From the NCBI RefSeq assembly GCF_024223415.1, contig NZ_CP100500.1: a DNA stretch of 64,000 bases; one strand, given 5' to 3'. Origin of the DNA: Escherichia coli. GTDB taxonomy: Bacteria > Pseudomonadota > Gammaproteobacteria > Enterobacterales > Enterobacteriaceae. This document shows positions 5,880 through 30,244 of this stretch, in pieces; the stretch's first letter is position 1, and each line of letters starts with the position of its first letter. The notes below the pieces were generated by a model. It had not been told where the DNA came from. It was given only the letters and a program-made list of their open reading frames with translations, and made no database searches. Position numbers and translations under genes: made by a program.

Positions 5880-6072
5880 CCGTCAACTTCACATGAAACC
5901 CGCCAGAGCACTGTTTCCGGATTCAGACATCAGGCATATTATCATCCACGATGTCGTGAACAAGATCACACTTTTGCAATTCCTTTATTGATCGAAAGCA
6001 GTTAATCACGGAAATTAATTACCGGAGTGAAAGCATTACTGCATCGTAAATATCTACCATTTTTGACTACAC

Positions 6073-6101
6073 CCTCTGACAGAATTTTCAGAGGGTTTTT
6101 T
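6073..6101 (+). terminator. intrinsic-terminator-like hairpin
   Basis: Perfect 8-bp stem ccctctga/tcagaggg with a 7-nt loop, followed by tttttt. Confidence 0.5.
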
Positions 6102-6185
6102 ATCAGTTTCACCATCCAACCCTGTACGCCAGAATGGTTTCACTGTCACTCAGTTCTGCTATTGCCTTTTTCATCTCCCTTTACC

Positions 6186-6400
6186 TTACGTTCTGCCAGA
6201 GTCTGAGCCATTTGAACAGGAGGTTATCATTGATATCGTGTTCCCGGGCAATACGGGCAACAGAGGCTCCTGGTTGCAAAGCCAGTTTAACCATTTGAAG
6301 TTTAACTCATTTGAAAATGATCTGCGGGGTTCTGCGGATAATGTTTTTGCTCCATAACAGGCGCCCACCAGTTTGAAAAGGTGGGCACCTACGTTACCAA
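6186..6400 (-). pseudogene. IS3-family orfA-like remnant (frameshifted)
   Basis: Minus-strand frames encode ...RRSFSNELNFKW... and MVKLALQPGASVARIAREHDINDNLLFKW..., resembling the HTH region of IS2/IS3-type OrfA; split across frames. Confidence 0.4.
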
Positions 6401-6556
6401 TACTGGCTTAATGGATACATACGGCGGTCGGTTCTTACGGTAAAACGACACAACCAAACGCTTCTTATCCTGCAATGAACTGCTTTATTACCGAGTTTAG
6501 TGACCGCACAGACACTCACTTTTAAGAAAAACAGAATGGTAAACAAACTCCATGAA

Positions 6557-6745
6557 TTACAATAGCTCTCTGGCTGCCGCCACAATAGCTTGCGCGGTTA
6601 ACCCGTACTCTCTCTGTAAAAAGTCCTGAGTTTCAACCTGGCCATACCGCTCTTTAACCCCCACCCGACGCATGGGCACAGGACAAGTTTCTACAAGCAC
6701 TTCAGCAACTGCTGAACCTAATCCATTATGAATACGGTAATGACT
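6557..6745 (-). pseudogene. 3' fragment of a transketolase-like (TPP enzyme) C-terminal-subunit gene, truncated at the IS1 end
   Basis: Minus-strand translation ...HNGLGSAVAEVLVETCPVPMRRVGVKERYGQVETQDFLQREYGLTAQAIVAAARELL then stop (6557-6559); the frame runs straight into the IS1-like inverted repeat at 6745. Confidence 0.5.
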
Positions 6746-6812
6746 CCAATTAGTTGAATTAGGAGTATAATAGCCACTTTTAAGGTTCTTTCATGGTCAC
6801 AGTTAACCTTCA

Positions 6813-7064
6813 TTGCTCCTGTTGCCAGTCCGTTCAGGTTTACCGTCACGGGAAGAACCCAAAGGACATGATCGATTTCGCTGCCGTGACTGTCATCGAG
6901 TGCTTCAGCTCACTTACCGTTACGAGGCCCGTAAACCGGGAGTTAAAGAGCAAATCACTGAAATGGCTTTCAACGGTGCCGGAGTTCGCGATACTGCCCG
7001 TACGCTGAAAATCGGCATTAATACTGTCATCCGGACTTTAAAAAACTCTCGCCACGAAGAATAA
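6813..7064 (+). CDS. insA: IS1-family InsA-like protein
   Basis: 83-aa ORF with Cys-rich N-terminus (CRDCHRVLQL) and InsA-like HTH (ITEMAFNGAGVRDTARTLKIGINTVIRTLKNS); divergent from canonical IS1 InsA. Confidence 0.7.
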   Translation: MLLLPVRSGLPSREEPKGHDRFRCRDCHRVLQLTYRYEARKPGVKEQITEMAFNGAGVRDTARTLKIGINTVIRTLKNSRHEE

Positions 7065-7082
7065 CGTCATACCCGGTCGCTC

Positions 7083-7377
7083 ATGCTGATATGGCACTCA
7101 TCTGCGAACTTGATGAGCAATGGAGTTTTGTCGGCAGTAAAGCGCGACAGCACTGGCTCTGGTACACGTACAACACGAAAACTGGTGGCGTTCTGGCCTA
7201 CACTTTTGGCCTACGGACTGATTAAACCTGTCGTGAATTGCTGGCGCTGCTTGCCCTTTTACCATCGGTATGTTGACCACTGACGAATGGGGTAGTTACA
7301 CCAGAGAGTTACCGAAGGAGAAGCATCTGACTGGTAAGATTTTTACTCAGCGCATTGAGCGCAACATCTACCTCTGA
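7083..7377 (+). pseudogene. insB: IS1-family InsB-like transposase, interrupted
   Basis: Pieces ...DEQWSFVGSKARQHWLWYTYNTKTGGVLAYTFG... and ...DEWGSYTRELPKEKHLTGKIFTQRIERN... match InsB but lie in different frames with stops. Confidence 0.6.
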
Positions 7378-8019
7378 GAACCCGAATCAAACGTCTGGCC
7401 CGCAGAACTATCTGTTTCTCGCGCTCTGTAGAACTTCATGAAAAAGTCATCGGTGCCTTTATCGAAAAATATATGTTCTACTAATTGGAGTCACCACCTT
7501 CGTTTGTTTAAAGAACCTGCTGGTCCTGCCATTAATATTACCTGCTGATTGCTTCACATCCGGATTCCTCGCACTGCGCGCGGGTTATTGTTTCGTTTTC
7601 GGCCACGGGGTCGCCAGGGCTCTGTTTGCAGGCCATGATGGCCTGACCTGTACTGTTTCTCAGGCACTGAGATGTCCGTTTACGCCATTTGTTCCCTGCC
7701 CCTCTGTCTGATAACGAATACGCTCACAACGCACAGTACTGAACAATACCGACAACAACATGTCTTACATGAAATTCGCTGTAACATCCACCGGAAAACA
7801 TTTTCAGATATCGGATGAGGTACTACTTCCATTGACAGCGCGAGGTAACAAAATTGATGGTAACTCTGACCATTAACCGTAAACCGCAGGGTATTTTCAG
7901 TAAATCACCGGCAACGCCGCTGCAGGATAAAACGGACACAGCATACAAAATGAAGGCCGGTGACCAGATACCACAGTTGAACGATAAACAGAAACCTGCT
8001 GATAAAACACCGTGGCGAC

Positions 8020-8365
8020 ATGACAAAACGCCAGAGCAAAAACCGTAAGCGCATTATTCGTCTTGTGGAACTCTGGCCTGAGTCATTCAACCGGGAAAAA
8101 AACAAAACCACTTAAAGTGGGGATACCTGACGACCTGATACAGGATATCGCCATCCGAGAACTGGCGTTTGGCGCTGGTACATTACATGCAGCAGTGGCG
8201 TCTTATGTGCAGTCTCCGCGCTATTACCGTGCGTTAATAGCAGGTGGCGCCCGTTACAACCTGAACGGTCAGCCGTGCGGGGAAGTGACACCACAGGAAC
8301 AGAAAGAGGCAGAGACCCGTTTAATGATGCTGAATGACCGACGAAAAGACAGAAAACCTCGTTGA
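8020..8365 (+). CDS. FinO/ProQ-domain RNA-binding protein, frameshifted in an A7 run
   Basis: Frame from ATG 8020 gives MTKRQSKNRKRIIRLVELWPESFNREK then a stop; the next frame continues KPLKVGIPDDLIQDIAIRELAFGAGTLHAAVASYVQSPRYYRALIAGGARYNLNGQPCGEVTPQEQKEAE, matching the ProQ N-terminal/FinO domain signature. The frames join if the A7 run at 8096-8102 is A6. Confidence 0.6.
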
Positions 8366-8382
8366 CTGCACAACAGCGCTGT

Positions 8383-9135
8383 TCACTGAGCTGTAATCAA
8401 TGTACAGCGCTGTACCGGGCGATGGGTAATACCGGTCACAACCGGTAACCCCAGAGACAATGCAACTGTTTTTAACGCAATATACTGGCCGGATGTATCA
8501 CCCCGGGCAGCCTGAAAACACCTTTCCACCCGGCATTGTCCGTCAGCACTTATCACCCGCCATGTCTGTTGCAATAAATCCACCCGTTGCGAACATTCTT
8601 CATCAACCGTGGCACTGACCCGTGGATGGCAAATGCTCGTCTGGCTGAGCAGCAACAGGCATCGCATTGTTGCTCCTCCATGTTGTTCCCGCAACCAGCG
8701 TAATACCACCGGTGGTGCTGGACTGGCCGTGTGATTACGTTCAGTAATACGCTCGTGCACCTGTCGGTAAAAGGAAGTACAGAATGCATGAATCTGTTGT
8801 CCGTTGATGTTTCCTTCTGCCGAATGGAGTGTGAAGTGGACGGCCAGCAGACGCGGCCAGTGATCCACCGCCTGCTGAATAAAACGCCGGATTTCCACCG
8901 GCTCTGAAAGTACGGTTTCGGTTATTTGCACGATTTGATCCCCTTGAATGTTGCTGAACCGGTGTCGGTACGCAGGAAAGCACGCCGAGACCGGTACGAT
9001 GCCTGTTACAGCGAAGAACGAGGAATGACAGACGGGGGCAGCAGGTCGCCAGCACCAGGGACAGGGCTGATTTCCACAATACCAACGCTGGTATTTTGCA
9101 CATTGCCAGCGTACCGGCATTACAACACGTTTCAT
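8383..9135 (-). CDS. Gp2-family (YagK/YfjJ-like) island protein, third paralog, possibly degenerate
   Basis: Shares a motif pattern with the two upstream paralogs (LLAVHFTLHS..., VLRWLREQHGG...MRCLLLLS). Start uncertain; the Met at 9135 would overlap the alpA stop in an ATGA arrangement. The N-terminal region is low-complexity. Confidence 0.45.
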   Translation of the reverse strand: MKRVVMPVRWQCAKYQRWYCGNQPCPWCWRPAAPVCHSSFFAVTGIVPVSACFPAYRHRFSNIQGDQIVQITETVLSEPVEIRRFIQQAVDHWPRLLAVHFTLHSAEGNINGQQIHAFCTSFYRQVHERITERNHTASPAPPVVLRWLREQHGGATMRCLLLLSQTSICHPRVSATVDEECSQRVDLLQQTWRVISADGQCRVERCFQAARGDTSGQYIALKTVALSLGLPVVTGITHRPVQRCTLITAQ

Positions 9136-9368
9136 GCTGCTGCCCCTCGTGATGCCTCGATTCGTTGCTGCATCCACTGCTCCACTTCACTTTTGTACCA
9201 GCGGCTGCTGCGCCCCAGTTTGATGGGTTTAGGGAAATGGCCTTCACTGATCAGCTTGTAAAACCATTTGTCGGTCATACCAGTGAAGCTGGTGATGTAG
9301 TTCATGTCGATCAGGGGATCGTCGGCACGCAGCAATACGCTGTCGTGACCTGTCATTGAGGTCAACAT
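9132..9368 (-). CDS. alpA: AlpA-family phage/island transcriptional regulator
   Basis: Small ORF with the AlpA-type HTH (MTDKWFYKLISEGHFPKPIKLGRSSRWYKSEVEQW); the true start may be an internal Met. Confidence 0.75.
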   Translation of the reverse strand: MLTSMTGHDSVLLRADDPLIDMNYITSFTGMTDKWFYKLISEGHFPKPIKLGRSSRWYKSEVEQWMQQRIEASRGAAA

Positions 9369-9436
9369 GGTCAGAATGTCCTCTGTGAGATTTATGAATG
9401 TTGGGCAAATGCGGGTGAATCTGCTGAGCTGAGCTT

Positions 9437-10039
9437 TCAGAGCTGGCCTGCTACGGGATACCAGGGATTACCGGCGAGGTAACGGGCTTCCGGATCGCGC
9501 ACACCACGACGATCGCGGGCGAAATCACTGAACGCCCATATCAGCTCTTTGAGTCTCTCTTCGCAGTCCGGTGAACAACTGTCCAGCGCCACATCCCGGG
9601 TTATCTGTTTCTGGTACGGTGCCGCTTCACCCGGTGACGCGAAGCCCAGTACGTTGCTCCAGGCATCCAGAATCAGCCGATCCAGTTCAGGGCCGTCGAA
9701 ATACTCCTGTCTGACGCACAGCACCACGTGGTATTCCGGTTTTTCAGGATGACGAGTCAGGAGCCAGCAGAGGTCACGTCCGGGTGTTGCATTCATCAGC
9801 GCACTGACGGTTTCGATAAAGGCCATACCGAACCAGGTTTTTCTGTCGCTGAAGATGTTGCCATGTTCCCCCGGCAGACGAAGCAGGATCCGCCGTATTC
9901 GGGAGCAGGACTGCTCGCGCAACACACGGTTGAGAACGCCGATGATTTTGTTCTGATAAGATGGCCAGAAGGGCGCCATGCTATAGTCGAAATAAGGGAT
10001 AGCATTCATAAGATATGTTCCGTTATACGCAGCCCACAA
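9437..10039 (-). CDS. Gp2-family (YagK/YfjJ-like) island protein
   Basis: 200-aa ORF paralogous to 10366-11097 (e.g. ...KPEYHVVLCVRQEYFDGPELDRLILDAWSNVLG); belongs to the family common in CP4-type islands. Confidence 0.6.
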   Translation of the reverse strand: MWAAYNGTYLMNAIPYFDYSMAPFWPSYQNKIIGVLNRVLREQSCSRIRRILLRLPGEHGNIFSDRKTWFGMAFIETVSALMNATPGRDLCWLLTRHPEKPEYHVVLCVRQEYFDGPELDRLILDAWSNVLGFASPGEAAPYQKQITRDVALDSCSPDCEERLKELIWAFSDFARDRRGVRDPEARYLAGNPWYPVAGQL

Positions 10040-10365
10040 CGCGTCCTGCCCGTGGATGCGCTGACGTGTTATGGCTTGCGTATGGGGTTGATGGAATAAG
10101 TGAAAAACCGCGGCAGAACGGGAAGATCAGGTAACCGACAAGGGACAGAACACCGGATGCAGGTTCAGAATGAATGATCTCCGTTGACTTCGGTTCACAT
10201 CATTAAGCAGGACAGTAAGGTTTTACCGACGGAGTGTTTCCAGGAGCGAAAGCAGAGAAAAATACCGTTGCATGACTTCAGGACGACTTTTTCAGAAAAC
10301 GAGCTAAGGGCGTCAGCCAACGTCCTGTAGCATAAGCTCAGGCACCGGATGTCGTTTTACAGGGC

Positions 10366-11097
10366 TCACCTGCCATCCAGCAGACGCCCCGGCCCACGAC
10401 TGCAACCATAATTACGTTGCCCGGAACCGTCATGCTGCTTCGTCTCATATTTCACGAGATAACTGGCTCTGTTCCGGGCTTTCTGCAGCGCTTCCACATC
10501 ACCACGCTTGATCCAGAGAACAGCGGCTTCACCCGGCTTTTTTTCTGAAGCCTTCCTGGTATCAGAACATCCACCCGACAAAGGCGTGTCATCGGAAGAA
10601 GGGCGAGCATCAGACGATGCTGGTTTACGGGAAGGCGTCCACCTGGAAAAATGGGCCAGGCCATCGCCTTGCCAGGCCTCAAGATGCAGGGCGCTGCACC
10701 ATGCCTCCAGGATCATCGTCGCCAGCGAAGATGGTTCGCTGAAATCCCCTGGCGAGCACCAGGTATCTTTGTTGAGCAGCAATATCACGTGATAATGTTT
10801 CCTGCCTTTTTCCTTGCCAAACTCCCGACACCAGAAATAACGCAGAGTGGTTGCACGCACACGCTTGTTGGCACGTCGTTTTTTCCGCTGGTAAGCCTGG
10901 ATTTTGGCTTTCAGGGATTCGAAAAAACGAGAAATCACCGCTGAATCCGGATCGGGATCCATGATGGTGACAGGCATATACTCAGGGAAACGTAAATCCA
11001 CCCGGATTAACGAGACGGCACGGTGCTGCGACAGGGCACTGTCGAGAAGGCTGTCAAAACGGGATAACCAGTAAGCATTGTGTATTGGTTGATTCAT
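10366..11097 (-). CDS. Gp2-family (YagK/YfjJ-like) island protein
   Basis: 243-aa ORF (...RKHYHVILLLNKDTWCSPGDFSEPSSLATMILEAWCSAL...); its upstream leader shares a motif with the leader of 9437-10039. Confidence 0.6.
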   Translation of the reverse strand: MNQPIHNAYWLSRFDSLLDSALSQHRAVSLIRVDLRFPEYMPVTIMDPDPDSAVISRFFESLKAKIQAYQRKKRRANKRVRATTLRYFWCREFGKEKGRKHYHVILLLNKDTWCSPGDFSEPSSLATMILEAWCSALHLEAWQGDGLAHFSRWTPSRKPASSDARPSSDDTPLSGGCSDTRKASEKKPGEAAVLWIKRGDVEALQKARNRASYLVKYETKQHDGSGQRNYGCSRGPGRLLDGR

Positions 11098-12755
11098 GAT
11101 GAGAGATCTCCGTTGATTTGGATTGACTTCACATCATTAATCACCGCGGTAAAACTTTACGGCATCATGTCATTAAGCAATGCTACAACTCTCTGATTAA
11201 GAGTGATTGAAACGGAACAAACCATCCCGGAACGAAAAGATAATCCTGCACACAGCAGCAAAACACGCAACAACAGCATGAATGGATTTAAAAACGACAT
11301 GGACGACGAGAAAAGCCTGAAGGGAAAAGGATCCACAGAACATTCGAACAAAACACCAGAAACGCAACCAGAACGCTTCCTGGCAATGCAAATCAACAAC
11401 AACGCCAAAACCTACAGCTTAATCACACAACTCAATCACGAATGCGAATGACACGTTTAAAACCTGTTTACAGATAACGCCGTAACACGATCATCCCCAT
11501 CACCATCAGAATCGATTTTCTCATCCCGAAAATGTTACGTTTCACTACTCACCATAAAAACGATTAACCATCGATAACGTAAATCTCATCTGAATCAAAA
11601 AACCAAAACCAATCATCACACTTTCGCAATGCAAGAAGAAAAACCACATCATGACGAAAACAATGACCTTACATGAAAAAGCAAAACGTCAGGAATCGTT
11701 AATGCCTCAATCTGATTGTTATCAAAACATCCAGAAAGTCGTTTAACAGAATCGTCGTAAGCACATCGAAAAGAACGTCAGATCACCTCAGGAAAGTTCG
11801 GGTTGATTTAGCGTAAAGATACTTTTCTCAGCTTAACGTCGAAACACAAACCAAAAACCACAAACAACCAAAGCTCAGGAAAGGTTAAACGTCACATCAG
11901 TAAAATCGAATAGCAGATTGATTGCTTAAACAGGAAGGATTGTTTTACAGCAGCATTAAACTGATTTAGTTAACGTAAAATCAGAACTGACAGGTTTACT
12001 AACTTGGATGTGTATCAGTTCAAAAATGTGTACAGCAATGCGTAATGAAACACATTTAAAGGAGATTAATGGGAAAAGTGTGTAAATGCGTAAACAGGCA
12101 CTAATGAATCACTGGAGGAATACATACAAAACGACTTAATGAAAACATAAAAGGACCTAATGGAAAAGGTGTATATAATACCATATCCGACATTCTCAAC
12201 ATCTTAAGACATCCATGCAGACTGAATGTTGGTTTCAGTTTTTCACGGTAAGCATGAATCTTTTCTGTTCAAAAGCAGAGCAGATTTACTCTGGAATTAT
12301 TTTTCTTACTCCGTATTCTGTACAGCAAAAACTTGTGCTAACTTTACAGCAAACCATCATAATCAGCGTCTGTAGTCCCATCGCTTTACCCCATGAAAGT
12401 GAATCCATATGATGTGAGAGAGATAAGTCATCGTATCCGGTAAACACTGCTTACTATAACATAAGATCATTCAGTCAGTTTTATCTCTGAACTGACGATT
12501 ATGGCATGCTCATTTATATGGCTCACAGAGGAGTGTTATTATCCGTAAGCTTTAATCATCAAATCACATGACCATACCAAACTGGCGCTATATCAGCTCA
12601 TTTGACGCTCATTCCCTTTAGATTTCTTTATGTGTTTTTTGTCGATAATTAAAATGTAATATAAATTTAATATTTTCACATCATAAACACCATTTAAAAC
12701 CATCATCCTGAACATCATACAACAATATATTTTTACTAAAGCATGAATTGTATAT

Positions 12756-13904
12756 TTATATTAATTCAGGAAAATTATCAGGATTCACCTTTAAATTCAA
12801 CTGAATGTTACACTTAATTTCACTCAGCAGTTCTTCATGCGTGGATTTTATTATCCCTTTATCATAATCTATAAATACACACATGTTTTTCATGAATTCA
12901 AACCCTTTTCCTGTATACAGTTTGATGAATGCCACAAGAGCAAACATTTCAAGATGCAGCCATAATGCCACGTGAGTTTTTCGCAAAGTATAAAAAATTG
13001 AATTCGCCACTTTTTTACTTATTGCTCTTTTGTACTGTGAGTGCGCCAGATTCAGTAGTGGCAATTCTCTCTCGATAAATGAAAGTGAAAAAGGCGGGTA
13101 AATTGATGTCGGAAATATTTCAGGTCTTATGATATTTTCGATTTCCACCATAAATCTATCCATAGAACGAAAATCATTTTCTTTTTTTATTCTGGTATAG
13201 AGACCGCCTTTATTCCTTACTGCGACTTTTTTTCGTGCTATCCCCCCCAACATTTCCTCTAATTGTTTATTTATCTTCGTATCATTAAATACAACCATTC
13301 TTCTTATCATCCTGGGAAGGATGATAATATCAGAGCTTGAATCACTTGAACGGCAATTATTATTGATCCATGCAACTTCAAGTTGAAGTATCGGAACATT
13401 AAATTCTCTGGGGTTAATAACTCTCTGATATTGTTTTTTGTATGCGTTTTCATTAAGATATTCTCTGCTGTAGAGAAACTTATAGCAATATAATCTGACA
13501 ATATCCTTTATGTAAGATTTAAATGAGTCACCTGTAACAGATATATTTTTTCTTCTCAGTAACTCCTGTGTATTGAGCCATTCCCGTGACCGGAGTACTC
13601 CATTATGAAGACTTTTTCTTACTTGCTTTGAATTGCGCAATTGATGTAATATTTTTGCGTCCTCAACAATTCTCTTTCCCGTTTGATTTCTTGCAGCATC
13701 TATTACTCTGTCAAATATCTCCCGGTCCAGACTTTTGTCATATTTACTGATTATACGACAAATATTCCTGACCCGACGGTTCTCTTTATTTCGTTTCCAT
13801 AACTGATAATGATCATCACATAACCTCAGGGCATTTGCCTCATCAAATTCTGAAACAGGATTGCTGCATTTTTTATTCCGACAGATACCTTTGTTTTTAG
13901 CCAT
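12756..13904 (-). CDS. hypothetical protein, orphan AT-rich island cargo gene, function unknown
   Basis: Uninterrupted 382-aa ORF, visibly AT-rich against the flanking genes; N-terminal Cys/His cluster (CRNKKCSN...LCDDHYQLW), K/R-rich, no long hydrophobic segments. No family recognised by me. Divergent from the YeeP-like gene across a 100-bp intergenic region. Confidence 0.6.
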   Translation of the reverse strand: MAKNKGICRNKKCSNPVSEFDEANALRLCDDHYQLWKRNKENRRVRNICRIISKYDKSLDREIFDRVIDAARNQTGKRIVEDAKILHQLRNSKQVRKSLHNGVLRSREWLNTQELLRRKNISVTGDSFKSYIKDIVRLYCYKFLYSREYLNENAYKKQYQRVINPREFNVPILQLEVAWINNNCRSSDSSSDIIILPRMIRRMVVFNDTKINKQLEEMLGGIARKKVAVRNKGGLYTRIKKENDFRSMDRFMVEIENIIRPEIFPTSIYPPFSLSFIERELPLLNLAHSQYKRAISKKVANSIFYTLRKTHVALWLHLEMFALVAFIKLYTGKGFEFMKNMCVFIDYDKGIIKSTHEELLSEIKCNIQLNLKVNPDNFPELI

Positions 13905-14004
13905 ACTCTTCTTCCCGTCAATGGAAAAATTTTCACGTCCATATTACCTGACTGATAGGCCGGATTAATGTGATCCGGTTCAGTGAAATCAACAGGATAA
14001 CGGT

Positions 14005-14889
14005 ATGTCATTCAGCCATTCTTCCCTCTCCGCACACGTAAAGTCACATCTGACCTTTCTTCCTGAAGAAATTCGCCAGAAAATCCTTGAACATCTTCGC
14101 AGCGTCATTCAGTACGAACCCGTTATTGGCATTATGGGTAAATCCGGTGCCGGAAAAAGCAGCCTGTGCAATGCCATTTTTCAGTCCCGTGTCTGCGCCA
14201 CGCATCCGCTGAACGGCTGCACCCGTCAGGCTCATCGTCTTACCTTTCAGCCCGGTGAACGAAGAATGACGCTGGTCGATCTGCCCGGCACTGGCGAAAC
14301 ACCACAGCATGATCAGGAATACCGGGCACTTTACAGTCAGTTACTGCCCGAACTGGATCTGATTATCTGGATCCTGCGGGCTGATGAACGTGCGTATGCT
14401 GCCGACATCGCCATGCATCAGTTTTTACTGAATGAAGGTGCCGATCCCTCGCGTTTTCTGTTTGTTCTCAGCCATGCCGATCGCATCCACCCGGCTGAAG
14501 AATGGAACAACCAGAGCAGCACGCCATCCCGTCAGCAGGAACTCTCACTGGCGACGGTGACAGCCCGGGTGGCAACCCTGTTCCCTTCATCATTTCCGGT
14601 ACTCCCCATAGCCGCCCCTGCCGGCTGGAATCTTCCGGCATTTGTGTCTCTGATGATCCACGCCCTGCCACCACAGGCAACCAGCGCGGTTTATTCGCAT
14701 ATCCGGAATGAAAAGCGCACTGCGCAGGATCAGCAACACGCACAGCAGGCTTTTGGTGACGCCATCGGCCAGAGTTTTGACGCTGCCATTGCCCGGTTCA
14801 GCTTTCCGGCCTGGATGCTGCAGCTTCTGCGCAAAGCCCGTGATCGCATTATCCGCCTGCTGATCACACTGTGGGATCGCCTGTTCTGA
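14005..14889 (+). CDS. YeeP/YfjP/YkfA-family GTPase
   Basis: 294-aa ORF with P-loop GIMGKSGAGKSSLCNAIF and DLPGTGE motif; typical first gene of the CP4-type conserved module. Confidence 0.8.
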   Translation: MSFSHSSLSAHVKSHLTFLPEEIRQKILEHLRSVIQYEPVIGIMGKSGAGKSSLCNAIFQSRVCATHPLNGCTRQAHRLTFQPGERRMTLVDLPGTGETPQHDQEYRALYSQLLPELDLIIWILRADERAYAADIAMHQFLLNEGADPSRFLFVLSHADRIHPAEEWNNQSSTPSRQQELSLATVTARVATLFPSSFPVLPIAAPAGWNLPAFVSLMIHALPPQATSAVYSHIRNEKRTAQDQQHAQQAFGDAIGQSFDAAIARFSFPAWMLQLLRKARDRIIRLLITLWDRLF

Positions 14890-15074
14890 ATGTCCCCGCT
14901 TTTTGACCGGCCCCGGCGATAACCAGGAAACGCATTTCCGGTTGCGTCACCACAATGCTGAAGGGCTTCGGTAAACCCTCATTCATTTCATCCATCAGGC
15001 CGCGTCTTCTCCGTGAGACGCGGCTTTTTCATTGATTACGTCATTCAGTCTTAACCACTGATAAGGAGCAAAGT

Positions 15075-15893
15075 ATGCGATTAGCCAGTCGTTTTGGTTA
15101 TGCGAACCAGATACGCCGTGACCGTCCGCTGACCCGTGAAGAGCTGATGCACCATGTGCCCGGGATTTTCGGGGAAGATAAACACACCTCCCGGAGCCGG
15201 AACTATACATACATCCCCACCATCACCGTGCTGGAAAGCCTGCAGCGGGAAGGCTTTCAGCCATTCTTCGCCTGCCAGACCCGCGTACGTGACCCGGGCC
15301 GCCGGGGGTATACCAAACACATGCTGCGTCTGCGCCGTGACGGGGAGATAAACGGACAACATGTCCCTGAAATTATTCTGCTCAACTCTCATGACGGTAC
15401 CTCCAGCTACCAGATGCTGCCGGGTTACTTCAGGTTCGTCTGCCAGAACGGATGCGTCTGCGGTCAGTCTCTGGGGGAAGTGCGTGTTCCGCACCGGGGA
15501 AATGTGGTGGACAGAGTCATTGAAGGGGCTTACGAGGTGGTGGGCGTGTTTGACCGGATAGAGGAGAAGCGTGATGCCATGCAGTCGCTGGTCCTGCCGC
15601 CACCGGCACGCCAGGCGCTGGCACAGGCGGCACTGACTTACCGTTATGGTGACGAACATCAGCCCGTCACCACCGCCGACATTCTGACGCCGCGACGCCG
15701 GGAGGATTACGGTAAGGACCTGTGGAGCGCATATCAGACCATCCAGGAGAATATGCTGAAAGGCGGGATTTCCGGTCGCAGTGCAAAAGGAAAACGTATC
15801 CATACCCGGGCCATTCACAGCATTGATACCGACATTAAGCTCAATCGCGCATTGTGGGTGATGGCAGAAACGATGCTGGAGAGCCTGCGCTGA
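15075..15893 (+). CDS. DUF932-family protein (YfjQ/YafZ-like)
   Basis: 272-aa ORF closely resembling remembered YfjQ/YafZ sequences (MRLASRFGY...ILLNSHDGTSSYQ...). Confidence 0.8.
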   Translation: MRLASRFGYANQIRRDRPLTREELMHHVPGIFGEDKHTSRSRNYTYIPTITVLESLQREGFQPFFACQTRVRDPGRRGYTKHMLRLRRDGEINGQHVPEIILLNSHDGTSSYQMLPGYFRFVCQNGCVCGQSLGEVRVPHRGNVVDRVIEGAYEVVGVFDRIEEKRDAMQSLVLPPPARQALAQAALTYRYGDEHQPVTTADILTPRRREDYGKDLWSAYQTIQENMLKGGISGRSAKGKRIHTRAIHSIDTDIKLNRALWVMAETMLESLR

Positions 15894-15974
15894 TGCCGTT
15901 TCCCTGAGTGAGGGAATCATTCAGCTTTCGTTCCTGAAAAACACACATTTATTTGTTATTTAAGGAGTTATCTC

Positions 15975-16454
15975 ATGAAAACCGTTTCTCAGAATACCCC
16001 CACAATTTATTCAGCTACAACACCAGAGAATAATCCGCCTCAGTTGGTTGCCAGCCTCGTCCCTGATGAACAGCGCATCAGCTTCTGGCCGCAGCACTTT
16101 GGCCTCATTCCACAGTGGGTGGCCCTGGAGCCCCGTGTCTTCGGCTGGATGGACCGTCTGTGTGAAGACTACTGCGGTGGTATCTGGAATCTGTACACCC
16201 TGAACAACGGCGGGGCATTTATGGCACCCGAACCGGATGACGATGATGACGAAACATGGGTACTGTTCAATGCCATGAACGGTAACCGCGCTGAAATGAG
16301 TCCGGAAGCTGCCGGCATTGCTGCCTGTCTGATGACGTACAGTCATCACGCCTGTCGTACGGAGTGTTATGCCATGACGGTCCATTATTACCGGCTGCGG
16401 GATTACGCCCTGCAGCATCCGGAATGCAGCGCCATTATGCGCATCATCGACTGA
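15975..16454 (+). CDS. antirestriction protein, KlcA/ArdB-like (YfjX/YafX family)
   Basis: 159-aa ORF with an acidic stretch (PEPDDDDDE), position and sequence typical of the island antirestriction proteins. Confidence 0.75.
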   Translation: MKTVSQNTPTIYSATTPENNPPQLVASLVPDEQRISFWPQHFGLIPQWVALEPRVFGWMDRLCEDYCGGIWNLYTLNNGGAFMAPEPDDDDDETWVLFNAMNGNRAEMSPEAAGIAACLMTYSHHACRTECYAMTVHYYRLRDYALQHPECSAIMRIID

Positions 16455-16946
16455 ATGGAGGCAGGGACAATGCAGCAGCTTTCCTTTCTGCCCGGAGAGA
16501 TGACGCCCGGCGAGCGCAGTCTCATTCTGCGGGCCCTGAAAACTCTGGACCGCCATCTTCATGAACCCGGCGTGGCCTTCACCTCCACCCGTGCGGCACG
16601 GGAATGGCTGATTCTGAACATGGCGGGACTGGAGCGTGAAGAATTCCGGGTGCTGTATCTGAATAACCAGAATCAACTGATTGCCGGTGAAACCCTCTTC
16701 ACCGGCACCATCAACCGCACGGAAGTCCATCCCCGGGAAGTGATTAAACGCGCCCTGTACCACAATGCCGCTGCCGTGGTGCTGGCGCACAATCACCCGT
16801 CCGGTGAAGTCACACCCAGCAAGGCAGACCGCCTTATCACGGAACGTCTGGTACAGGCACTGGGCCTGGTGGATATCCGGGTGCCGGACCATCTGATAGT
16901 CGGTGGCAACCAGGTTTTCTCCTTTGCCGAACATGGTCTGCTTTAA
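16455..16946 (+). CDS. RadC-like JAB-domain protein (YeeS/YfjY/YkfG family)
   Basis: JAB/MPN motif HNHPSGEVTPSKADRLITERL; start may be the internal Met (MQQLSF..., 16470). Confidence 0.8.
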   Translation: MEAGTMQQLSFLPGEMTPGERSLILRALKTLDRHLHEPGVAFTSTRAAREWLILNMAGLEREEFRVLYLNNQNQLIAGETLFTGTINRTEVHPREVIKRALYHNAAAVVLAHNHPSGEVTPSKADRLITERLVQALGLVDIRVPDHLIVGGNQVFSFAEHGLL

Positions 16947-17008
16947 CCCGTCACAACCACATCACGCTTGTTTGCACTTTTATCTTCTGTCTTCAGAGGT
17001 ATCACACT

Positions 17009-17230
17009 ATGAAAATCATCACCCGTGGTGAAGCCATGCGTATTCACCAACAACATCCGGCATCCCGTCTTTTTCCTTTCTGTACCGGCAAATACCGCTG
17101 GCACGGCAGTGCTGAGGCGTATACCGGTCGTGAAGTGCAGGATATTCCCGGTGTGCTGGCCGTGTTTGCTGAACGCCGTAAGGACAGTTTTGGCCCGTAT
17201 GTCCGGCTGATGAACGTCACTCTGAACTGA
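17009..17230 (+). CDS. yeeT: DUF987 protein (YeeT/YkfH-like)
   Basis: 73-aa ORF, near-identical to remembered YeeT (MKIITRGEAMRIHQQHP...). Confidence 0.8.
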   Translation: MKIITRGEAMRIHQQHPASRLFPFCTGKYRWHGSAEAYTGREVQDIPGVLAVFAERRKDSFGPYVRLMNVTLN

Positions 17231-17248
17231 GTCAGTAAGGGCACTCTG

Positions 17249-17880
17249 ATGAGCAGAATTATCACCATCACAGTGTATACGCTGGATGAACTTTCCTGCC
17301 CGGCACGGGAAAAAGCCCGCGACGGGTACCGTCAGCATCATGCTGACAGCAACTGGTATGAAAACGTGTATGAGGACGTCAGGGAGGTCTGTGGCATTTT
17401 CGGAATTGACCTCTGCCAGCGTGTTATCCGTCTCAGCAACGGCAGGTTTATGGAAGAGCCGTGCATCTGGTTCAGCGGATTCTGCAGCCAGGGACGGAGC
17501 CTGTTTTGAAGGACGCTGGCACTGGCAGTCAGCAACAACCAGGAGAGTCCGGGAGTATGCCCCGCAGAACCGTGAGCTTCATCGTATCGCGGATGCCCTG
17601 CAGGCGGTGCAGAAACGTAACTTCTGGCAACTGCAGGCTGAAATCCACCACCGGGGACGTTACTGCCATCCGTTATCACTGTTACCCGGAACAGTCCGAC
17701 TGGTCAGGCTATGACAGCCGATGCGGAAGCCGCTGTCAGCGAAGCCCTGCGCGACCTGGCCTTCTGGCTGTACCGTCAACTGGAAAACGAGTACGACCAG
17801 ATGACCTCAGACGCCGCTGTGGATGAGGCCATTCTCATCAATGCATACATCTTCACCGAAACCGGTCAGCGCACCGGCTG
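17249..17880 (+). pseudogene. island ORF split across frames, family unknown
   Basis: Protein-like translation runs in one frame (17249-17509), shifts to a second (to 17714), then returns to the first (ATG 17711 to stop 17878-17880, ...AVSEALRDLAFWLYRQLENEYDQ...). Two frame changes would be needed for a single product. Confidence 0.45.
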
Positions 17881-17930
17881 ACCTGTCATCGTTAAACCAT
17901 TCTTAACCACTTTTCAGAGAGGATTTTATC

Positions 17931-18299
17931 GTGTCAGACACACTCTCCGGGATAACTCATCCCGACGACAATCACGACCGCCCCTGGTGGGGGCTTCCCT
18001 GCACAGTGAGGCCCTGTTTTGGCGCCCGTCTGGTGCAGGAGGGTAACCGCCTGCATTACCTTGCCGACCGCGCCGGCATCAGAGGCCGGTTCAGCGATGC
18101 GGATGCATACCATCTGGACCAGGCCTTTCCGCTGCTGATGAAACAACTGGAACTCATGCTCACCAGCGGTGAACTGAATCCCCGCCATCAGCATACCGTC
18201 ACGCTGTATGCAAAAGGGCTGACCTGCGAAGCCGACACCCTCGGCAGTTGTGGTTACGTTTATCTGGCTGTTTATCCGACGCCCGAAACGAAAAAGTAA
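17931..18299 (+). CDS. cbeA: type IV toxin-antitoxin antitoxin CbeA (YeeU family)
   Basis: 122-aa ORF near-identical to remembered CbeA/YeeU (MSDTL...NHDRPWWGLPCTV...). Confidence 0.85.
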   Translation: MSDTLSGITHPDDNHDRPWWGLPCTVRPCFGARLVQEGNRLHYLADRAGIRGRFSDADAYHLDQAFPLLMKQLELMLTSGELNPRHQHTVTLYAKGLTCEADTLGSCGYVYLAVYPTPETKK

Positions 18300-18389
18300 A
18301 CCACCGGAATAACCTTCTGCTCCGGCCAGGTGTTTTCACCACGCCACTCTCCCCATAATTTAATCTCTCATATCAGGAAAATCTTCAGT

Positions 18390-18800
18390 ATGAAATTATT
18401 ACCCGACACACATGTACGGGAGGCATCGTGCTGCCCGTCTCCCGTCACCATCTGGCAGACACTGCTCATCCGTCTGCTGGACCAGCACTATGGCCTCACA
18501 CTGAATGACACACCGTTCGCTGATGAACGTGTGATTGAGCAGCATATTGAGGCCGGCATTTCACTGTGCGATGCGGTGAACTTTCTCGTTGAAAAATACG
18601 CACTGGTACGTACCGACCAGCCGGGATTCAGCGCAGGAGCCCCGTCGCAGTTAATCAACAGCATCGATATTCTCCGGGCCCGCCGGGCAACAGGCCTGAT
18701 GACACGTAATAACTACAGAATGGTAAATAACATTACCCTGGGTAGCATCCGGGGGCGAAACGATGAAACTTTCCCTGACGCTGGAAGCCGACAGCGTTAA
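18390..18800 (+). CDS. cbtA: type IV toxin-antitoxin toxin CbtA (YeeV family), divergent extended C-terminus
   Basis: From the internal Met MKLLPD..., strong match to CbtA through ...MVNNITLG, then a different 18-residue tail that overlaps the next ORF by 38 nt. Confidence 0.75.
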
Positions 18801-19185
18801 CGTACAGGCGCTGAACATGGGGCGAATTGTCGTTGACATTGATGGTGTTGAGCTCACTGAACTGATTAACAAGGTCGCTGAAAACGGTTATTCACTCCGC
18901 GTGGTGGATGAACGTGACGCTACCGAAACACCGGCGACTTCTGCCAGCTCTCATCAGTTGCCGGAAGACAATACAGTGATACAGAGCGTGATGCCATTAA
19001 CCACTGAAACAGCGCTGGATATCCTCATTGCGTGGCTGCAGGACAATATCGACTGCGGGTCCGGAATTATTTTCGACAACGATGAGGATAAAACGGATTC
19101 GGCAGCACTGCTGCCCTGTATTGAACAGGCCAGGGAGGATATCCGTACCCTGCACCAACTGCAACTTCTGCACCAGAACCGGTGA
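18763..19185 (+). CDS. YeeW-like protein
   Basis: 140-aa ORF immediately after cbtA, as in CP4-type islands; identity is from recollection of yeeW-like genes, moderate certainty. Confidence 0.5.
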
Positions 19186-19269
19186 ATCTCACTCACCAGA
19201 CTTCATTCTCCTGACGCCAGCCTGAACAGAGCTGGCGTTTTCGTTTATAAACAGAAAGGAAACCCCATA

Positions 19270-19833
19270 ATGTCATATATCACAATCCCCCACCCGAACG
19301 CGGTCAACGGACATACAGCCGTTATCTGTTCCACAAGTATCCGCCACATTCTGGCTGTACGAAAGAGTACACTGCTGCAAATCGACACACTTATCCGGCA
19401 ACTGGCTGAAATATCAGCAATGACAGAAAGTATTGGCGGTAAAGCCGCCCCGGGCTGGGCCATGAAACAGGATTTTCGCTGCGGCTGCTGGCTGATGGAG
19501 AAACCGGAAACCGCAATGAAAGCCATCACACGCAATCTCGATCGCGAAATCTGGCGTGACCTGATGCAACGTTCAGGGATGCTTTCCTTAATGGATGCAC
19601 AGGCCCGTGATACATGGTACCGGTCACTGGAGTACGATAATTTTCCGGAAATCAGCGAAGCGAACATTCTGAGCACATTTAAACAACTGCACCAGAATAA
19701 GGATGAGCTGTTTGAGCGGGGGGAGATCAACGTCTTCAGAGGACTGAGCCGGGATTACAAAACCAGGTCGCCCTGCAAATTTAGTAATAAAATTATCATC
19801 AACAACCTGGTGAGGTGGGACCAGTGGGGATAA
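19270..19833 (+). CDS. hypothetical protein, terminal ORF of the island (possibly DUF4942-like)
   Basis: 187-aa ORF, last gene before the island boundary; family assignment uncertain. Confidence 0.45.
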   Translation: MSYITIPHPNAVNGHTAVICSTSIRHILAVRKSTLLQIDTLIRQLAEISAMTESIGGKAAPGWAMKQDFRCGCWLMEKPETAMKAITRNLDREIWRDLMQRSGMLSLMDAQARDTWYRSLEYDNFPEISEANILSTFKQLHQNKDELFERGEINVFRGLSRDYKTRSPCKFSNKIIINNLVRWDQWG

Positions 19834-20028
19834 TGAGATGGTTCCCCCCCACCTTAACAGCAGTACGCTGTTAAGGTGAATCCCTTTATGCTTCCCCCCT
19901 TTCACCTCATCTTCCAACACCCGGGTTTGATTCCTTTTTCACAGCAAAAGGGACTGAGGGTACAAAAGAGGGTATATTTTTCACCAAACCAAACAAAACA
20001 AACAAATATCAACATGATAGAAGAAATC

Positions 20029-20050
20029 TTCGATTCCGAGTCCGGCACCA
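20029..20050 (+). repeat. partial direct repeat of the tRNA-Phe 3' end (att site of the pheU island)
   Basis: ttcgattccgagtccggcacca matches the 3' end of E. coli tRNA-Phe (GGTTCGATTCCGAGTCCGGGCACCA) except for one missing G; no full tRNA gene is present, so this is the distal repeat. Confidence 0.75.
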
Positions 20051-20061
20051 AATTCATATAA

Positions 20062-20088
20062 ACGGACCTCCACGGAGGTCCGTTTTTC
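20062..20088 (+). terminator. intrinsic terminator (pheU-type) after the att repeat
   Basis: Hairpin acggacctcc/ggaggtccgt followed by a T-run. Confidence 0.6.
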
Positions 20089-20666
20089 GTTTCAGGACGC
20101 CACGATTTAAGCGTTCTGCCGCCAAATCAATTCTACCGAACTCAACCAGATTCTCCCCACATCACCAGCAATTTGCGGGCATATCCCAATTCGGGAAAAT
20201 TTGCTCCTTAGCTATAGCACTAACTGACGTGAAATGTCGTGCGGCCCCGTGATGCTGTTGAACGTCAAATGACGTCATCAGGAGCGTAACGCATCCATAA
20301 AGCACAACACCGGTCTGAACGGCGACTGATGAGATTTTCTGAATGAGAACAAAGAGAAATGTATCAGTCCGCTTGCTCATGCAAAGACTAACAATCCATT
20401 AAAATAGTAAGCGCTCCGGACAATTTTCCATGGATTATTTTCTGAACATTTTTCTTTGGCAAAGATGATGAATTTTGATGGTAAGGAATATTACTTCTGG
20501 TTCTCAGTAAAATCCTTTCGTAATACTATGTAATCAAGAAGTTTATGGCTGGTAAAAATAACGTCTTGCATCCACCAATAATATGTAAATAAACCCATCT
20601 ATAGATGGTAAAAATAGGTTGTGGCAATTATCATTGCATCATTCCCTTTTCGAATGAGTTTCTATT

Positions 20667-22205
20667 ATGCAACAACCTGTAGTTCGCGTTGGCGAATGGC
20701 TTGTTACTCCGTCCATAAACCAAATTAGCCGCAATGGGCGTCAACTTACCCTTGAGCCGAGATTAATCGATCTTCTGGTTTTCTTTGCTCAACACAGTGG
20801 CGAAGTACTTAGCAGGGATGAACTTATCGATAATGTCTGGAAGAGAAGTATTGTCACCAATCACGTTGTGACGCAGAGTATCTCAGAACTACGTAAGTCA
20901 TTAAAAGATAATGATGAAGATAGTCCTGTCTATATCGCTACTGTACCAAAGCGCGGCTATAAATTAATGGTGCCGGTTATCTGGTACAGCGAAGAAGAGG
21001 GAGAGGAAATAATGCTATCTTCGCCTCCCCCTATACCAGAGGCGGTTCCTGCCACAGATTCTCCCTCCCACAGTCTTAACATTCAAAACACCGCAACGCC
21101 ACCTGAACAATCCCCAGTTAAAAGCAAACGATTCACTACCTTTTGGGTATGGTTTTTTTTCCTGTTGTCCTTAGGTATCTGTGTAGCACTGGTAGCGTTT
21201 TCAAGTCTTGATACACGTCTTCCGATGAGCAAATCGCGTATTTTGCTCAATCCACGCGATATTGACATTAATATGGTAAATAAAAGTTGTAACAGCTGGA
21301 GTTCCCCGTATCAGCTCTCTTACGCGATAGGCGTGGGTGATTTGGTGGCGACATCACTTAACACCTTCTCCACCTTTATGGTGCATGACAAAATCAACTA
21401 CAACATTGATGAACCGAGCAGTTCCGGTAAAACATTATCTATTGCGTTTGTTAATCAGCGCCAATACCGTGCTCAACAATGCTTTATGTCGATAAAATTG
21501 GTAGACAATGCAGATGGTTCAACCATGCTGGATAAACGTTATGTCATCACTAACGGTAATCAGCTGGCGATTCAAAATGATTTACTGGAGAGTTTATCAA
21601 AAGCGTTAAACCAACCGTGGCCACAACGAATGCAGGAGACGCTCCAGCAAATTTTGCCTCATCGTGGTGCGTTATTAACTAATTTTTATCAGGCACATGA
21701 TTATTTACTGCATGGCGATGATAAATCATTGAACCGTGCGAGTGAATTATTAGGTGAGATTGTTCAATCATCCCCAGAATTTACCTACGCGAGAGCAGAA
21801 AAAGCATTAGTTGATATCGTGCGCCATTCTCAACACCCTTTAGATGAAAAACAATTAGCAGCACTGAACACAGAAATAGACAACATTGTTACACTACCGG
21901 AATTGAATAACCTGTCCATTATATATCAAATAAAAGCGGTCAGTGCTCTGGTAAAAGGTAAAACAGATGAGTCTTACCAGGCGATAAATACTGGTATTGA
22001 TCTTGAAATGTCCTGGCTAAATTATGTGTTGCTTGGCAAGGTTTATGAAATGAAGGGGATGAACCGGGAAGCAGCTGATGCATATCTCACCGCCTTTAAT
22101 TTACGCCCAGGGGCAAACACCCTTTACTGGATTGAAAATGGTATATTCCAGACTTCTGTTCCTTATGTTGTACCTTATCTCGACAAATTTCTCGCTTCAG
22201 AATAA
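20667..22205 (+). CDS. cadC: CadC, membrane-bound ToxR-like activator of cadBA
   Basis: 512-aa ORF matching CadC (N-terminal winged-helix DNA-binding domain, single TM segment, periplasmic sensor). Confidence 0.95.
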   Translation: MQQPVVRVGEWLVTPSINQISRNGRQLTLEPRLIDLLVFFAQHSGEVLSRDELIDNVWKRSIVTNHVVTQSISELRKSLKDNDEDSPVYIATVPKRGYKLMVPVIWYSEEEGEEIMLSSPPPIPEAVPATDSPSHSLNIQNTATPPEQSPVKSKRFTTFWVWFFFLLSLGICVALVAFSSLDTRLPMSKSRILLNPRDIDINMVNKSCNSWSSPYQLSYAIGVGDLVATSLNTFSTFMVHDKINYNIDEPSSSGKTLSIAFVNQRQYRAQQCFMSIKLVDNADGSTMLDKRYVITNGNQLAIQNDLLESLSKALNQPWPQRMQETLQQILPHRGALLTNFYQAHDYLLHGDDKSLNRASELLGEIVQSSPEFTYARAEKALVDIVRHSQHPLDEKQLAALNTEIDNIVTLPELNNLSIIYQIKAVSALVKGKTDESYQAINTGIDLEMSWLNYVLLGKVYEMKGMNREAADAYLTAFNLRPGANTLYWIENGIFQTSVPYVVPYLDKFLASE

Positions 22206-29694: not shown

Positions 29695-29721
29695 TTTTTA
29701 TGTTCTTCTTATCCTTCCTGG

Positions 29722-30018
29722 CTACTTGTAAAACTGACGGAAATAGTCATCAACTGTCATAATGTTGAGGTCAAAGTCAATATCCGGTAAGTCTAAGCAT
29801 TTAAGCCTGATTAAATCTTCGATTTCACTTGCGGCTAACGATGTCGTTATTGCGAAGGAGTTTTCATTCAATTGTCGTGGTATCCCATATTCATCAGCCA
29901 CGATAGAGGAGAAATTCATATCATACATCAATGATCTTAACCTTAAGAACACTGAGGAATAAGATGATGGATAATCAAAAGAAACAACATAAGTATTGAA
30001 CTTGTTTTTACCTTCCAT
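29722..30018 (-). CDS. ghoS: type V toxin-antitoxin antitoxin GhoS (RNase)
   Basis: Start at MEGKNKFNTYVV (98 aa), matching GhoS; directly upstream of ghoT. Confidence 0.85.
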   Translation of the reverse strand: MEGKNKFNTYVVSFDYPSSYSSVFLRLRSLMYDMNFSSIVADEYGIPRQLNENSFAITTSLAASEIEDLIRLKCLDLPDIDFDLNIMTVDDYFRQFYK

Positions 30019-30244
30019 AATATGACTCCTATCAATATTGAACACTCTGGGGACGCAAAACTTATTAACCCCGATTGATGATTCTCATATAGGAGATATT
30101 CTTTTTTTTGCTCAGTAAAGGGGATGACTTGGGACAAAAAAACGCGCTCTCTGCCCATTCTTTGTGCATCCCCCTACCCTTCAGATGCTCTCCTGCATCA
30201 CACCGTGGAGAGCATGAAAAATATCGTGAATCTGTACTCTCCCA

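Follow-up and report, generated by a model that had tools for sequence, protein, structure and literature searches.

Why should a toxin that otherwise belongs to the CbtA family end in an 18-residue tail that runs into the next gene, and is this tail a functional feature or an accident of the reading frame? This question is raised by a locus in a stretch of 64,000 nucleotides from Escherichia coli (contig NZ_CP100500.1), referred to here as the window, to which all coordinates apply. A first-pass annotation, made from the letters alone, had reported that the protein matches CbtA as far as NNITLG and then carries the tail, that the frame overlaps a yeeW-like start by 38 nt, and that a small indel near the normal stop was the likely origin. 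These statements are borne out by the translation and by DNA alignments. The annotation had also suggested that such a natural tail variant might differ in activity, and this part does not stand, for reasons given below. We consider it very well supported that this type IV toxin gene, cbtA, has lost a single base in codon 119 of about 125, that the deletion is fixed, and that the tail is its by-product. Nothing was found that contradicts the frameshift reading.

A CbtA-family toxin gene

The CbtA-family (YeeV-like) type IV toxin ORF (18390..18800, + strand) starts with the ATG at 18390, stops with the TAA at 18798-18800, and is 411 nt long, encoding 136 aa in a frame that is shifted at codon 119. 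An automated ORF listing extends it mechanically back to a GTG at 18330. Pfam model PF06755 (CbtA_toxin) scores 199.1 bits against a cut-off of 25, with model positions 1-112 of 112 aligned to residues 1-112, and since the full model is covered at such a score the gene is not a chance ORF. In NCBIfam, no family was found for the toxin, for the antitoxin or for the downstream ORF. In the translation the CbtA-like stretch runs to RMVNNITLG118, so that the frameshift lies six residues past the end of the Pfam toxin domain, and the 18-residue tail follows G118.

The best known counterpart is the CbtA (YeeV)/CbeA (YeeU) pair of the K-12 cryptic prophage CP4-44. The toxins share 81% protein identity, the full-length PF06755 match and phenylalanine at residue 65, the FtsZ-contact residue, and both loci have the order radC/yeeS, yeeT, cbeA, cbtA and a yeeW-like gene. 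As is usual in this family, the antitoxin gene lies just upstream on the same strand, cbeA being located 90 nt 5' of cbtA, and the module of radC/yeeS, DUF987/yeeT, cbeA, cbtA and DUF5983/yeeW is present, with the DUF5983 gene truncated. What is missing is a frame that ends at the native stop in the ATGA overlap, as the TGA at 18764-18766 is read through. The window thus differs from K-12 in that the toxin stop no longer overlaps the downstream start, and also in having an extra (broken) gene between yeeT and cbeA. The related pairs YkfI/YafW (CP4-6) and YpjF/YfjZ (CP4-57) belong to the same family (58-62% identity).

In its N-terminal 15 residues the window toxin is YkfI/YpjF-like, as it has cysteine at position 15, where K-12 CbtA has arginine. 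Position 14 is also cysteine (codons 14-15, 18429-18434; motif SCCP), where the residue is R, G or H in most close relatives, and the substitutions in the window toxin include T3L, R14C and T27I. In K-12 CbtA the exchange R15C abolishes MreB binding, and C15R is without effect in YkfI/YpjF (PMC5624674). R14C/C15 was considered as a special change in MreB binding and was rejected, as YkfI and YpjF have C15 natively and the SCCP motif is also present in the intact allele of strain SCEC020023.

A single-base deletion in codon 119

The DNA was aligned with five intact alleles (HS13-1, CFIAFB20190157, K-12, EC0585 and SCEC020023). One A of the Lys119 codon AAG has been lost (GGTAAGC to GGTAGC, 18743..18745, + strand), and GGT AAG CAT CC thereby becomes GGT AGC ATC C. 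The intact alleles read CTGGGTAAG(C/T)ATCCGG(A/G)GGCGAAA(C/T)GATGA, while the window at the same site reads CTGGGT-AGCATCCGGGGGCGAAACGATGA. All intact alleles stop at the TGA equivalent to 18764-18766, which overlaps the downstream start, and in silico repair by re-insertion of one A gives a protein that continues ...GKHPGAKR and ends at the TGA of the ATGA overlap. All long-form relatives in the alignment share G118-K119, and the lysine is the residue lost in the window toxin. The first-pass annotation had given K-12 CbtA a short tail, correctly so: the K-12 protein has 124 aa and its C-terminal end is ...NNITLGKYPEAK. Its last six residues (KYPEAK) are replaced by 18 out-of-frame residues in the window toxin, which likewise take the place of the ending KHP[E/G]AKR of the nearest intact alleles.

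The loss of one nucleotide shifts the last 6-7 codons of cbtA into the +1 frame, so that the native TGA is skipped and translation would stop at the first stop codon of the new frame, a TAA 34 nt on and inside the downstream gene. The 18 tail codons (18744..18797, + strand) are accordingly a +1-frame reading of the old 3' end of cbtA together with the first 12 codons of the downstream gene, and the stop in use (18798..18800, + strand) lies inside GTTAAC, formed by downstream codons 12-13 (GTT AAC). From its start at ATG 18763 this gene overlaps the cbtA ORF over positions 18763-18800, that is 38 nt. The native TGA (18764..18766, + strand), still in its ATGA overlap with the downstream start, is vestigial and out of frame, and it is there, at window position 18766 (3386 in locus L001), that PGAP ends its pseudogene. 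As the deletion drops the native TGA from the frame, the 18-residue tail is an out-of-frame by-product and not a conserved feature.

In the intact gene, a TAA at codons 113/114 (GG TAA AT) blocks the alternative frame, which is open only after this stop, and for that reason any -1 shift in the last ~36 nt (~12 codons) gives this tail. Several other database alleles fit this expectation. P0020 (E. coli) lacks a T in codon 117 and P0021 (E. fergusonii) a G in codon 122, and after these different frameshift positions both enter the tail with the consensus …RN[DN]ET[FG]PD[AT]GSRQ[RH]. P0003 and P0006 (E. coli), seen at the protein level only, have the same tail after G118 in other backgrounds. These four alleles are each found on one to a few contigs. 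P0101 from Salmonella (15 contigs), also at the protein level only, shifts after GKYSG into the related tail GPDETVSDCGS. All five resemble the window allele in having a late frameshift into the same alternative frame and a tail of the same kind; they differ from it in the deleted base (codon 117 or 122) or in the genetic background. In the source assembly of P0020 the neighbouring genes also look frameshifted. The recurrence of the tail needs no selective explanation, because the frame structure predicts it. The tail also varies with the DUF5983 start region between carriers (R136H, D125N, F128G, A131T). For a codon-position test of the overlap region, DUF5983 frame against tail frame, the data were too few, as they comprised six distinct sequences with six variable sites.

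Frequency of the allele

The allele was searched for in 5,426 complete RefSeq E. coli genomes. The exact 65-nt junction occurs in 43 records. Over the 520-nt segment 18381-18900, 19 complete RefSeq chromosomes of E. coli are 100% identical to the window, and 45 exceed 95% identity. When the A was put back into the query, 42 records were found at 99.0% (a single gap) together with two more deletion carriers, and the repaired junction itself was found at 100% in none of the 5,426 genomes, the best intact junction being 91% identical. There are about 12,700 cbtA-like places in 4,899 of the 5,426 genomes, and the tail allele makes up about 0.35% of these copies, being present in about 0.8% of the genomes. 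The idea that the tail is simply the common allele, which had been put forward as the counter-case to a variant, therefore fails for the family as a whole (43-45 of 5,426 genomes, among about 12,700 copies), but it does apply within the allele's own haplotype (>95% identity), where the frameshifted form is the main form. The sole intact gene found in this haplotype is the EC0585 allele, a mosaic with 96.8% identity over cbeA-cbtA and a K-12-like 3' third. The tail allele is thus rare in the CbtA family, and is fixed in its own haplotype apart from the EC0585 mosaic.

The allele is already known, as it has been deposited, and flagged by PGAP, in dozens of complete E. coli genomes. The PGAP label is "TA system toxin CbtA family protein, frameshifted" in every one of the seven carriers inspected (AR_0085, ACN002, GPEC389, GF60, strain 135, APEC E19035 and PSS-08-1); the frame is broken relative to the aligned family proteins, which makes the gene a pseudogene in the PGAP sense. 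The exact 136-aa protein is found on at least 999 public contigs, under source names that include "toxin" and as UniProt A0A1M1ISH3. This entry and the copies in AR_0085 (AM464_RS14445) and GPEC389 (ACYX38_RS21235) are 100% identical to the window in protein and DNA and represent the same allele; public carriers differ only in the chromosomal site (cadC, glnP, fabI or kps). The same ORF is therefore a 136-aa "toxin" in some pipelines (A0A1M1ISH3) and a frameshifted pseudogene in PGAP, and as it is called differently, counts of "intact" CbtA toxins per genome depend on the pipeline.

The hosts of the deletion carriers (44 complete genomes) are chicken or other poultry in ~23 cases and humans in ~12; two carriers were from black kites and one from a pig. 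Several of the poultry carriers are labelled APEC, with serotypes O78:H51 and O2:K1:H5. The hosts suggest an enrichment in poultry-associated lineages.

Mobility and mosaic structure of the haplotype

An 830-nt cbeA-cbtA core (17931-18762) is 100% identical beside cadC, glnP (GF60), fabI (strain 135) and kps (APEC E19035), while the flanks of this core differ by tens to hundreds of substitutions between carriers. EC0585 is identical to the haplotype through cbeA, the spacer and the initial ~240 nt of cbtA, then changes to a K-12-like intact 3' third and afterwards back; the K-12-like patch takes the place of exactly that 3' third of cbtA in which the haplotype is frameshifted. In PSS-08-1, the frameshifted cbtA is joined to a different intact cbeA allele that is ~6% divergent. 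EC0585 and PSS-08-1 are recombinants. In strain 135 (NZ_CP080260.1), one of two haplotype copies has a 1-nt deletion in cbeA, equivalent to window position 18216, and PGAP marks this cbeA copy as frameshifted; the antitoxin beside the frameshifted toxin may really have been lost here, or the assembly may be in error. The strain also carries the second haplotype copy and other paralogues.

Recombination among paralogous island modules is a well-known phenomenon. Here it has moved the haplotype to several chromosomal sites, and the observed mosaics point to frequent recombination or gene conversion between such modules. As recombination among paralogous modules carries the allele around, its spread is not evidence for selection on the tail. 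An identical 830-nt core at four sites with mosaic flanks is in itself a tidy example of paralogous-module recombination.

Neighbouring genes and island context

The cbtA gene is part of the decayed distal yeeS-yeeT-cbeA-cbtA-yeeW module of a degraded integrative island beside cadC, a module of the kind usual at the ends of E. coli islands. All genes of the module are on the + strand. The radC/yeeS-like JAB gene (16455/16470-16946; Pfam RadC) and the yeeT-like DUF987 gene (17009-17230; Pfam DUF987) form part of the conserved upstream module (16455..17230) and match the PGAP annotation of the collinear GPEC389 locus. They are followed by a pseudogene annotated as 'antitoxin of toxin-antitoxin stability system' (17249..17881), which PGAP calls 'frameshifted'. 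Relative to the intact 214-aa copy of GF60 it has suffered deletions of 2 nt and 10 nt; as these total 12 nt, the frame is regained after the second and a middle part of ~200 nt is out of frame. No Pfam match was obtained for this gene. The cognate antitoxin gene cbeA/yeeU (17931..18299, 122 aa) is intact, with a PF06154 match of 184 bits, and is named WP_039023579.1, 'type IV toxin-antitoxin system YeeU family antitoxin', by PGAP.

Downstream of cbtA, a 140-aa ORF (18763..19185) is a fusion of a DUF5983 (yeeW-like) gene with a DUF957 gene. It consists of ~50 N-terminal amino acids of DUF5983 (Pfam DUF5983_N matches on residues 4-57 only), a short unrelated linker and a complete DUF957, all in frame. 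Alignment with the intact gene pairs of HS13-1 and CFIAFB20190157 shows that the join results from the loss of about 280 nt, and PGAP describes the gene as 'DUF5983 ... incomplete; missing C-terminus'. The fusion is common to all frameshift carriers inspected and to EC0585, in which cbtA is intact. The next gene (19270..19833, 187 aa) is a truncated DUF4942 gene that covers Pfam profile positions 1-98 of 190, and PGAP marks its equivalents as 'incomplete' or 'frameshifted'. Three neighbours of cbtA are thus damaged, namely the 17249-17881 gene, DUF5983 and DUF4942.

The window is collinear with the cadC-side end of the island in GPEC389 and other genomes. In GPEC389 the module is followed by an integrase remnant, cadC, cadB, cadA, dtpC, lysS and ghoST. 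No tRNA gene was found within the window. By the same collinearity with GPEC389, the region at ~6000-15000 of the window holds pseudogenes of an IS1 transposase and of a ProQ/FinO-family protein, transposase and transketolase fragments, and YfjJ/YagK-like, inovirus Gp2-family, GTPase and DUF932 genes. This island interior is consistent with an old, decaying integrative element.

Is the product still a toxin?

The product, if made, probably still inhibits FtsZ/MreB and would be held in check by the intact CbeA encoded upstream, although we hold this with much less confidence than the deletion itself. Retained activity is plausible because the frameshift lies past the toxin domain and paralogues without the affected region are toxic. 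The mapped determinants of CbtA are R15 for MreB and F65 for FtsZ (Heller et al. 2017, PMC5624674), and F65 is needed for the interaction with FtsZ in CbtA, YkfI and YpjF alike (PMC5624674). YkfI and YpjF are toxic, and the C-terminal fusions His6-CbtA-GFP, His6-YkfI-GFP and His6-YpjF-GFP are fully toxic and cause the same morphologies as the untagged proteins (PMC5624674). In the alignment, YkfI (113 aa) and YpjF (109 aa) end upstream of the region that is altered in the window toxin; unlike the latter they do so at ordinary stops and have no frameshift. As YkfI and YpjF show, natural differences in C-terminal length, with proteins of 109 to 127 aa in the family, leave toxicity intact. It is on these grounds that the suggestion of a noteworthy functional tail variant is not upheld. 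It had been coupled to the statement that CbtA C-termini affect toxicity and targeting, and no such statement was found in the accessible literature, including Heller et al. 2017 (PMC5624674).

When the toxin was compared with the sequences in the PDB, no relative of solved structure was found, so that no structural argument on the C-terminus is available from that side. The AlphaFold2 model, computed from a 29-sequence alignment, is too poor to locate the tail (mean pLDDT 59, pTM 0.42), with the tail (119-136) below 50 and without secondary structure. Since the carriers compared do not differ in the core haplotype, it offers no variation for a selection test. The window allele, its repaired form and the short YkfI/YpjF proteins constitute a ready natural series on the CbtA C-terminus.

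Alternative explanations

Retained toxicity has to be weighed against the possibility that the frameshift, perhaps together with T3L, R14C and T27I, has inactivated the toxin, the ORF then being a dead pseudogene and a relic on its way to loss. We regard this as a serious but less probable explanation. It is in line with the PGAP call as a frameshifted pseudogene, with the loss of K119, which is conserved in long-form relatives, and with the decay of the surrounding module including the three degraded neighbours, all of which count against retained toxicity. So does the frameshifted cbeA in one carrier copy, that of strain 135: a broken antitoxin gene beside an active, expressed toxin would be unexpected, a point tempered by the second copy, by the paralogues and by the finding that antitoxins can also neutralise non-cognate toxins (PMC5371832). 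The full Pfam toxin domain and F65 are kept, however, and toxicity is seen both in paralogues without the whole C-terminal region and in C-terminal GFP fusions. Furthermore, cbeA is intact in 6 of 7 carrier copies inspected, and SCCP is shared by the intact allele of SCEC020023. A different proposal is that the base was dropped in the window only, by a sequencing or assembly error. Single-base indels are a common assembly error, and P0020, another 136-aa variant, comes from an assembly with frameshifted-looking neighbours. For the window allele we consider an artefact refuted, with practically no probability left, as 43 complete genomes, which stem from many unrelated projects and hosts, share the identical junction, with 19 records at 100% over 520 nt; moreover, the lost base is in a 2-base run, not in a long homopolymer, and the neighbouring 10-nt and ~280-nt deletions are common to the same genomes.

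It is also very unlikely that the 18-residue, Arg-rich tail has been selected because it changes stability, targeting or neutralisation of the toxin. One might point to the wide distribution of the allele (at least 999 contigs and four or more chromosomal sites), to its fixation in its own haplotype except for the mosaic EC0585, and to repeated frameshifts into the same frame. Yet recurrence is expected where any -1 shift in the last ~12 codons leads to the same tail, the other frameshift alleles have each been seen once or little more, and hitch-hiking on a recombining module with an 830-nt core that is identical everywhere accounts for the spread. The sequence of the tail is dictated by the overlapping start region of DUF5983 and varies with it between carriers, and literature support for a functional CbtA C-terminus was not found. 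Programmed recoding, by which ribosomes or RNA polymerase would compensate for the shift and the normal 125-aa protein would still be made, is extremely improbable. Nothing specific speaks for it, apart from a G-rich stretch (CCGGGGGCG) 3' of the site; the deletion site has neither a slippery heptamer nor a long homopolymer, an Rfam scan of window positions 15000-22000 gave no match, and the intact relatives have no such requirement. We thus favour a fixed single-base deletion with the tail as its by-product, an ordinary allele that matters little.

There is a slim chance, hardly greater than that of a selected tail, that the tail toxin is expressed and that its Arg-rich extension alters its behaviour, or that the read-through rewires expression of the DUF5983-DUF957 fusion. 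Altered behaviour could then concern, for example, proteolytic stability, the balance of FtsZ and MreB inhibition, or neutralisation by CbeA, and poultry-associated carrier lineages would have a functionally distinct type IV TA module.

Read-through into the downstream gene and a second toxin-antitoxin pair

Read-through over the downstream start probably weakens the coupling of termination and reinitiation to the truncated downstream gene. At 18750-18754 the window has GGGGG (A to G at 18752), where most intact alleles have a Shine-Dalgarno-like GGAGG 8-9 nt 5' of the downstream ATG; some intact alleles (with the tail KHPGAK[Q/R]) have the same G as at window position 18752. The GGGGG and the read-through may lower translation of the downstream fusion ORF. 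A promoter/terminator scan of 16900-19400 gave no more hits than shuffled sequence.

By collinearity, a ghoT/ghoS type V TA pair is located at ~29700-30200, about 11 kb downstream and past cadCBA, dtpC and lysS. With this pair, the window holds two unrelated TA systems.
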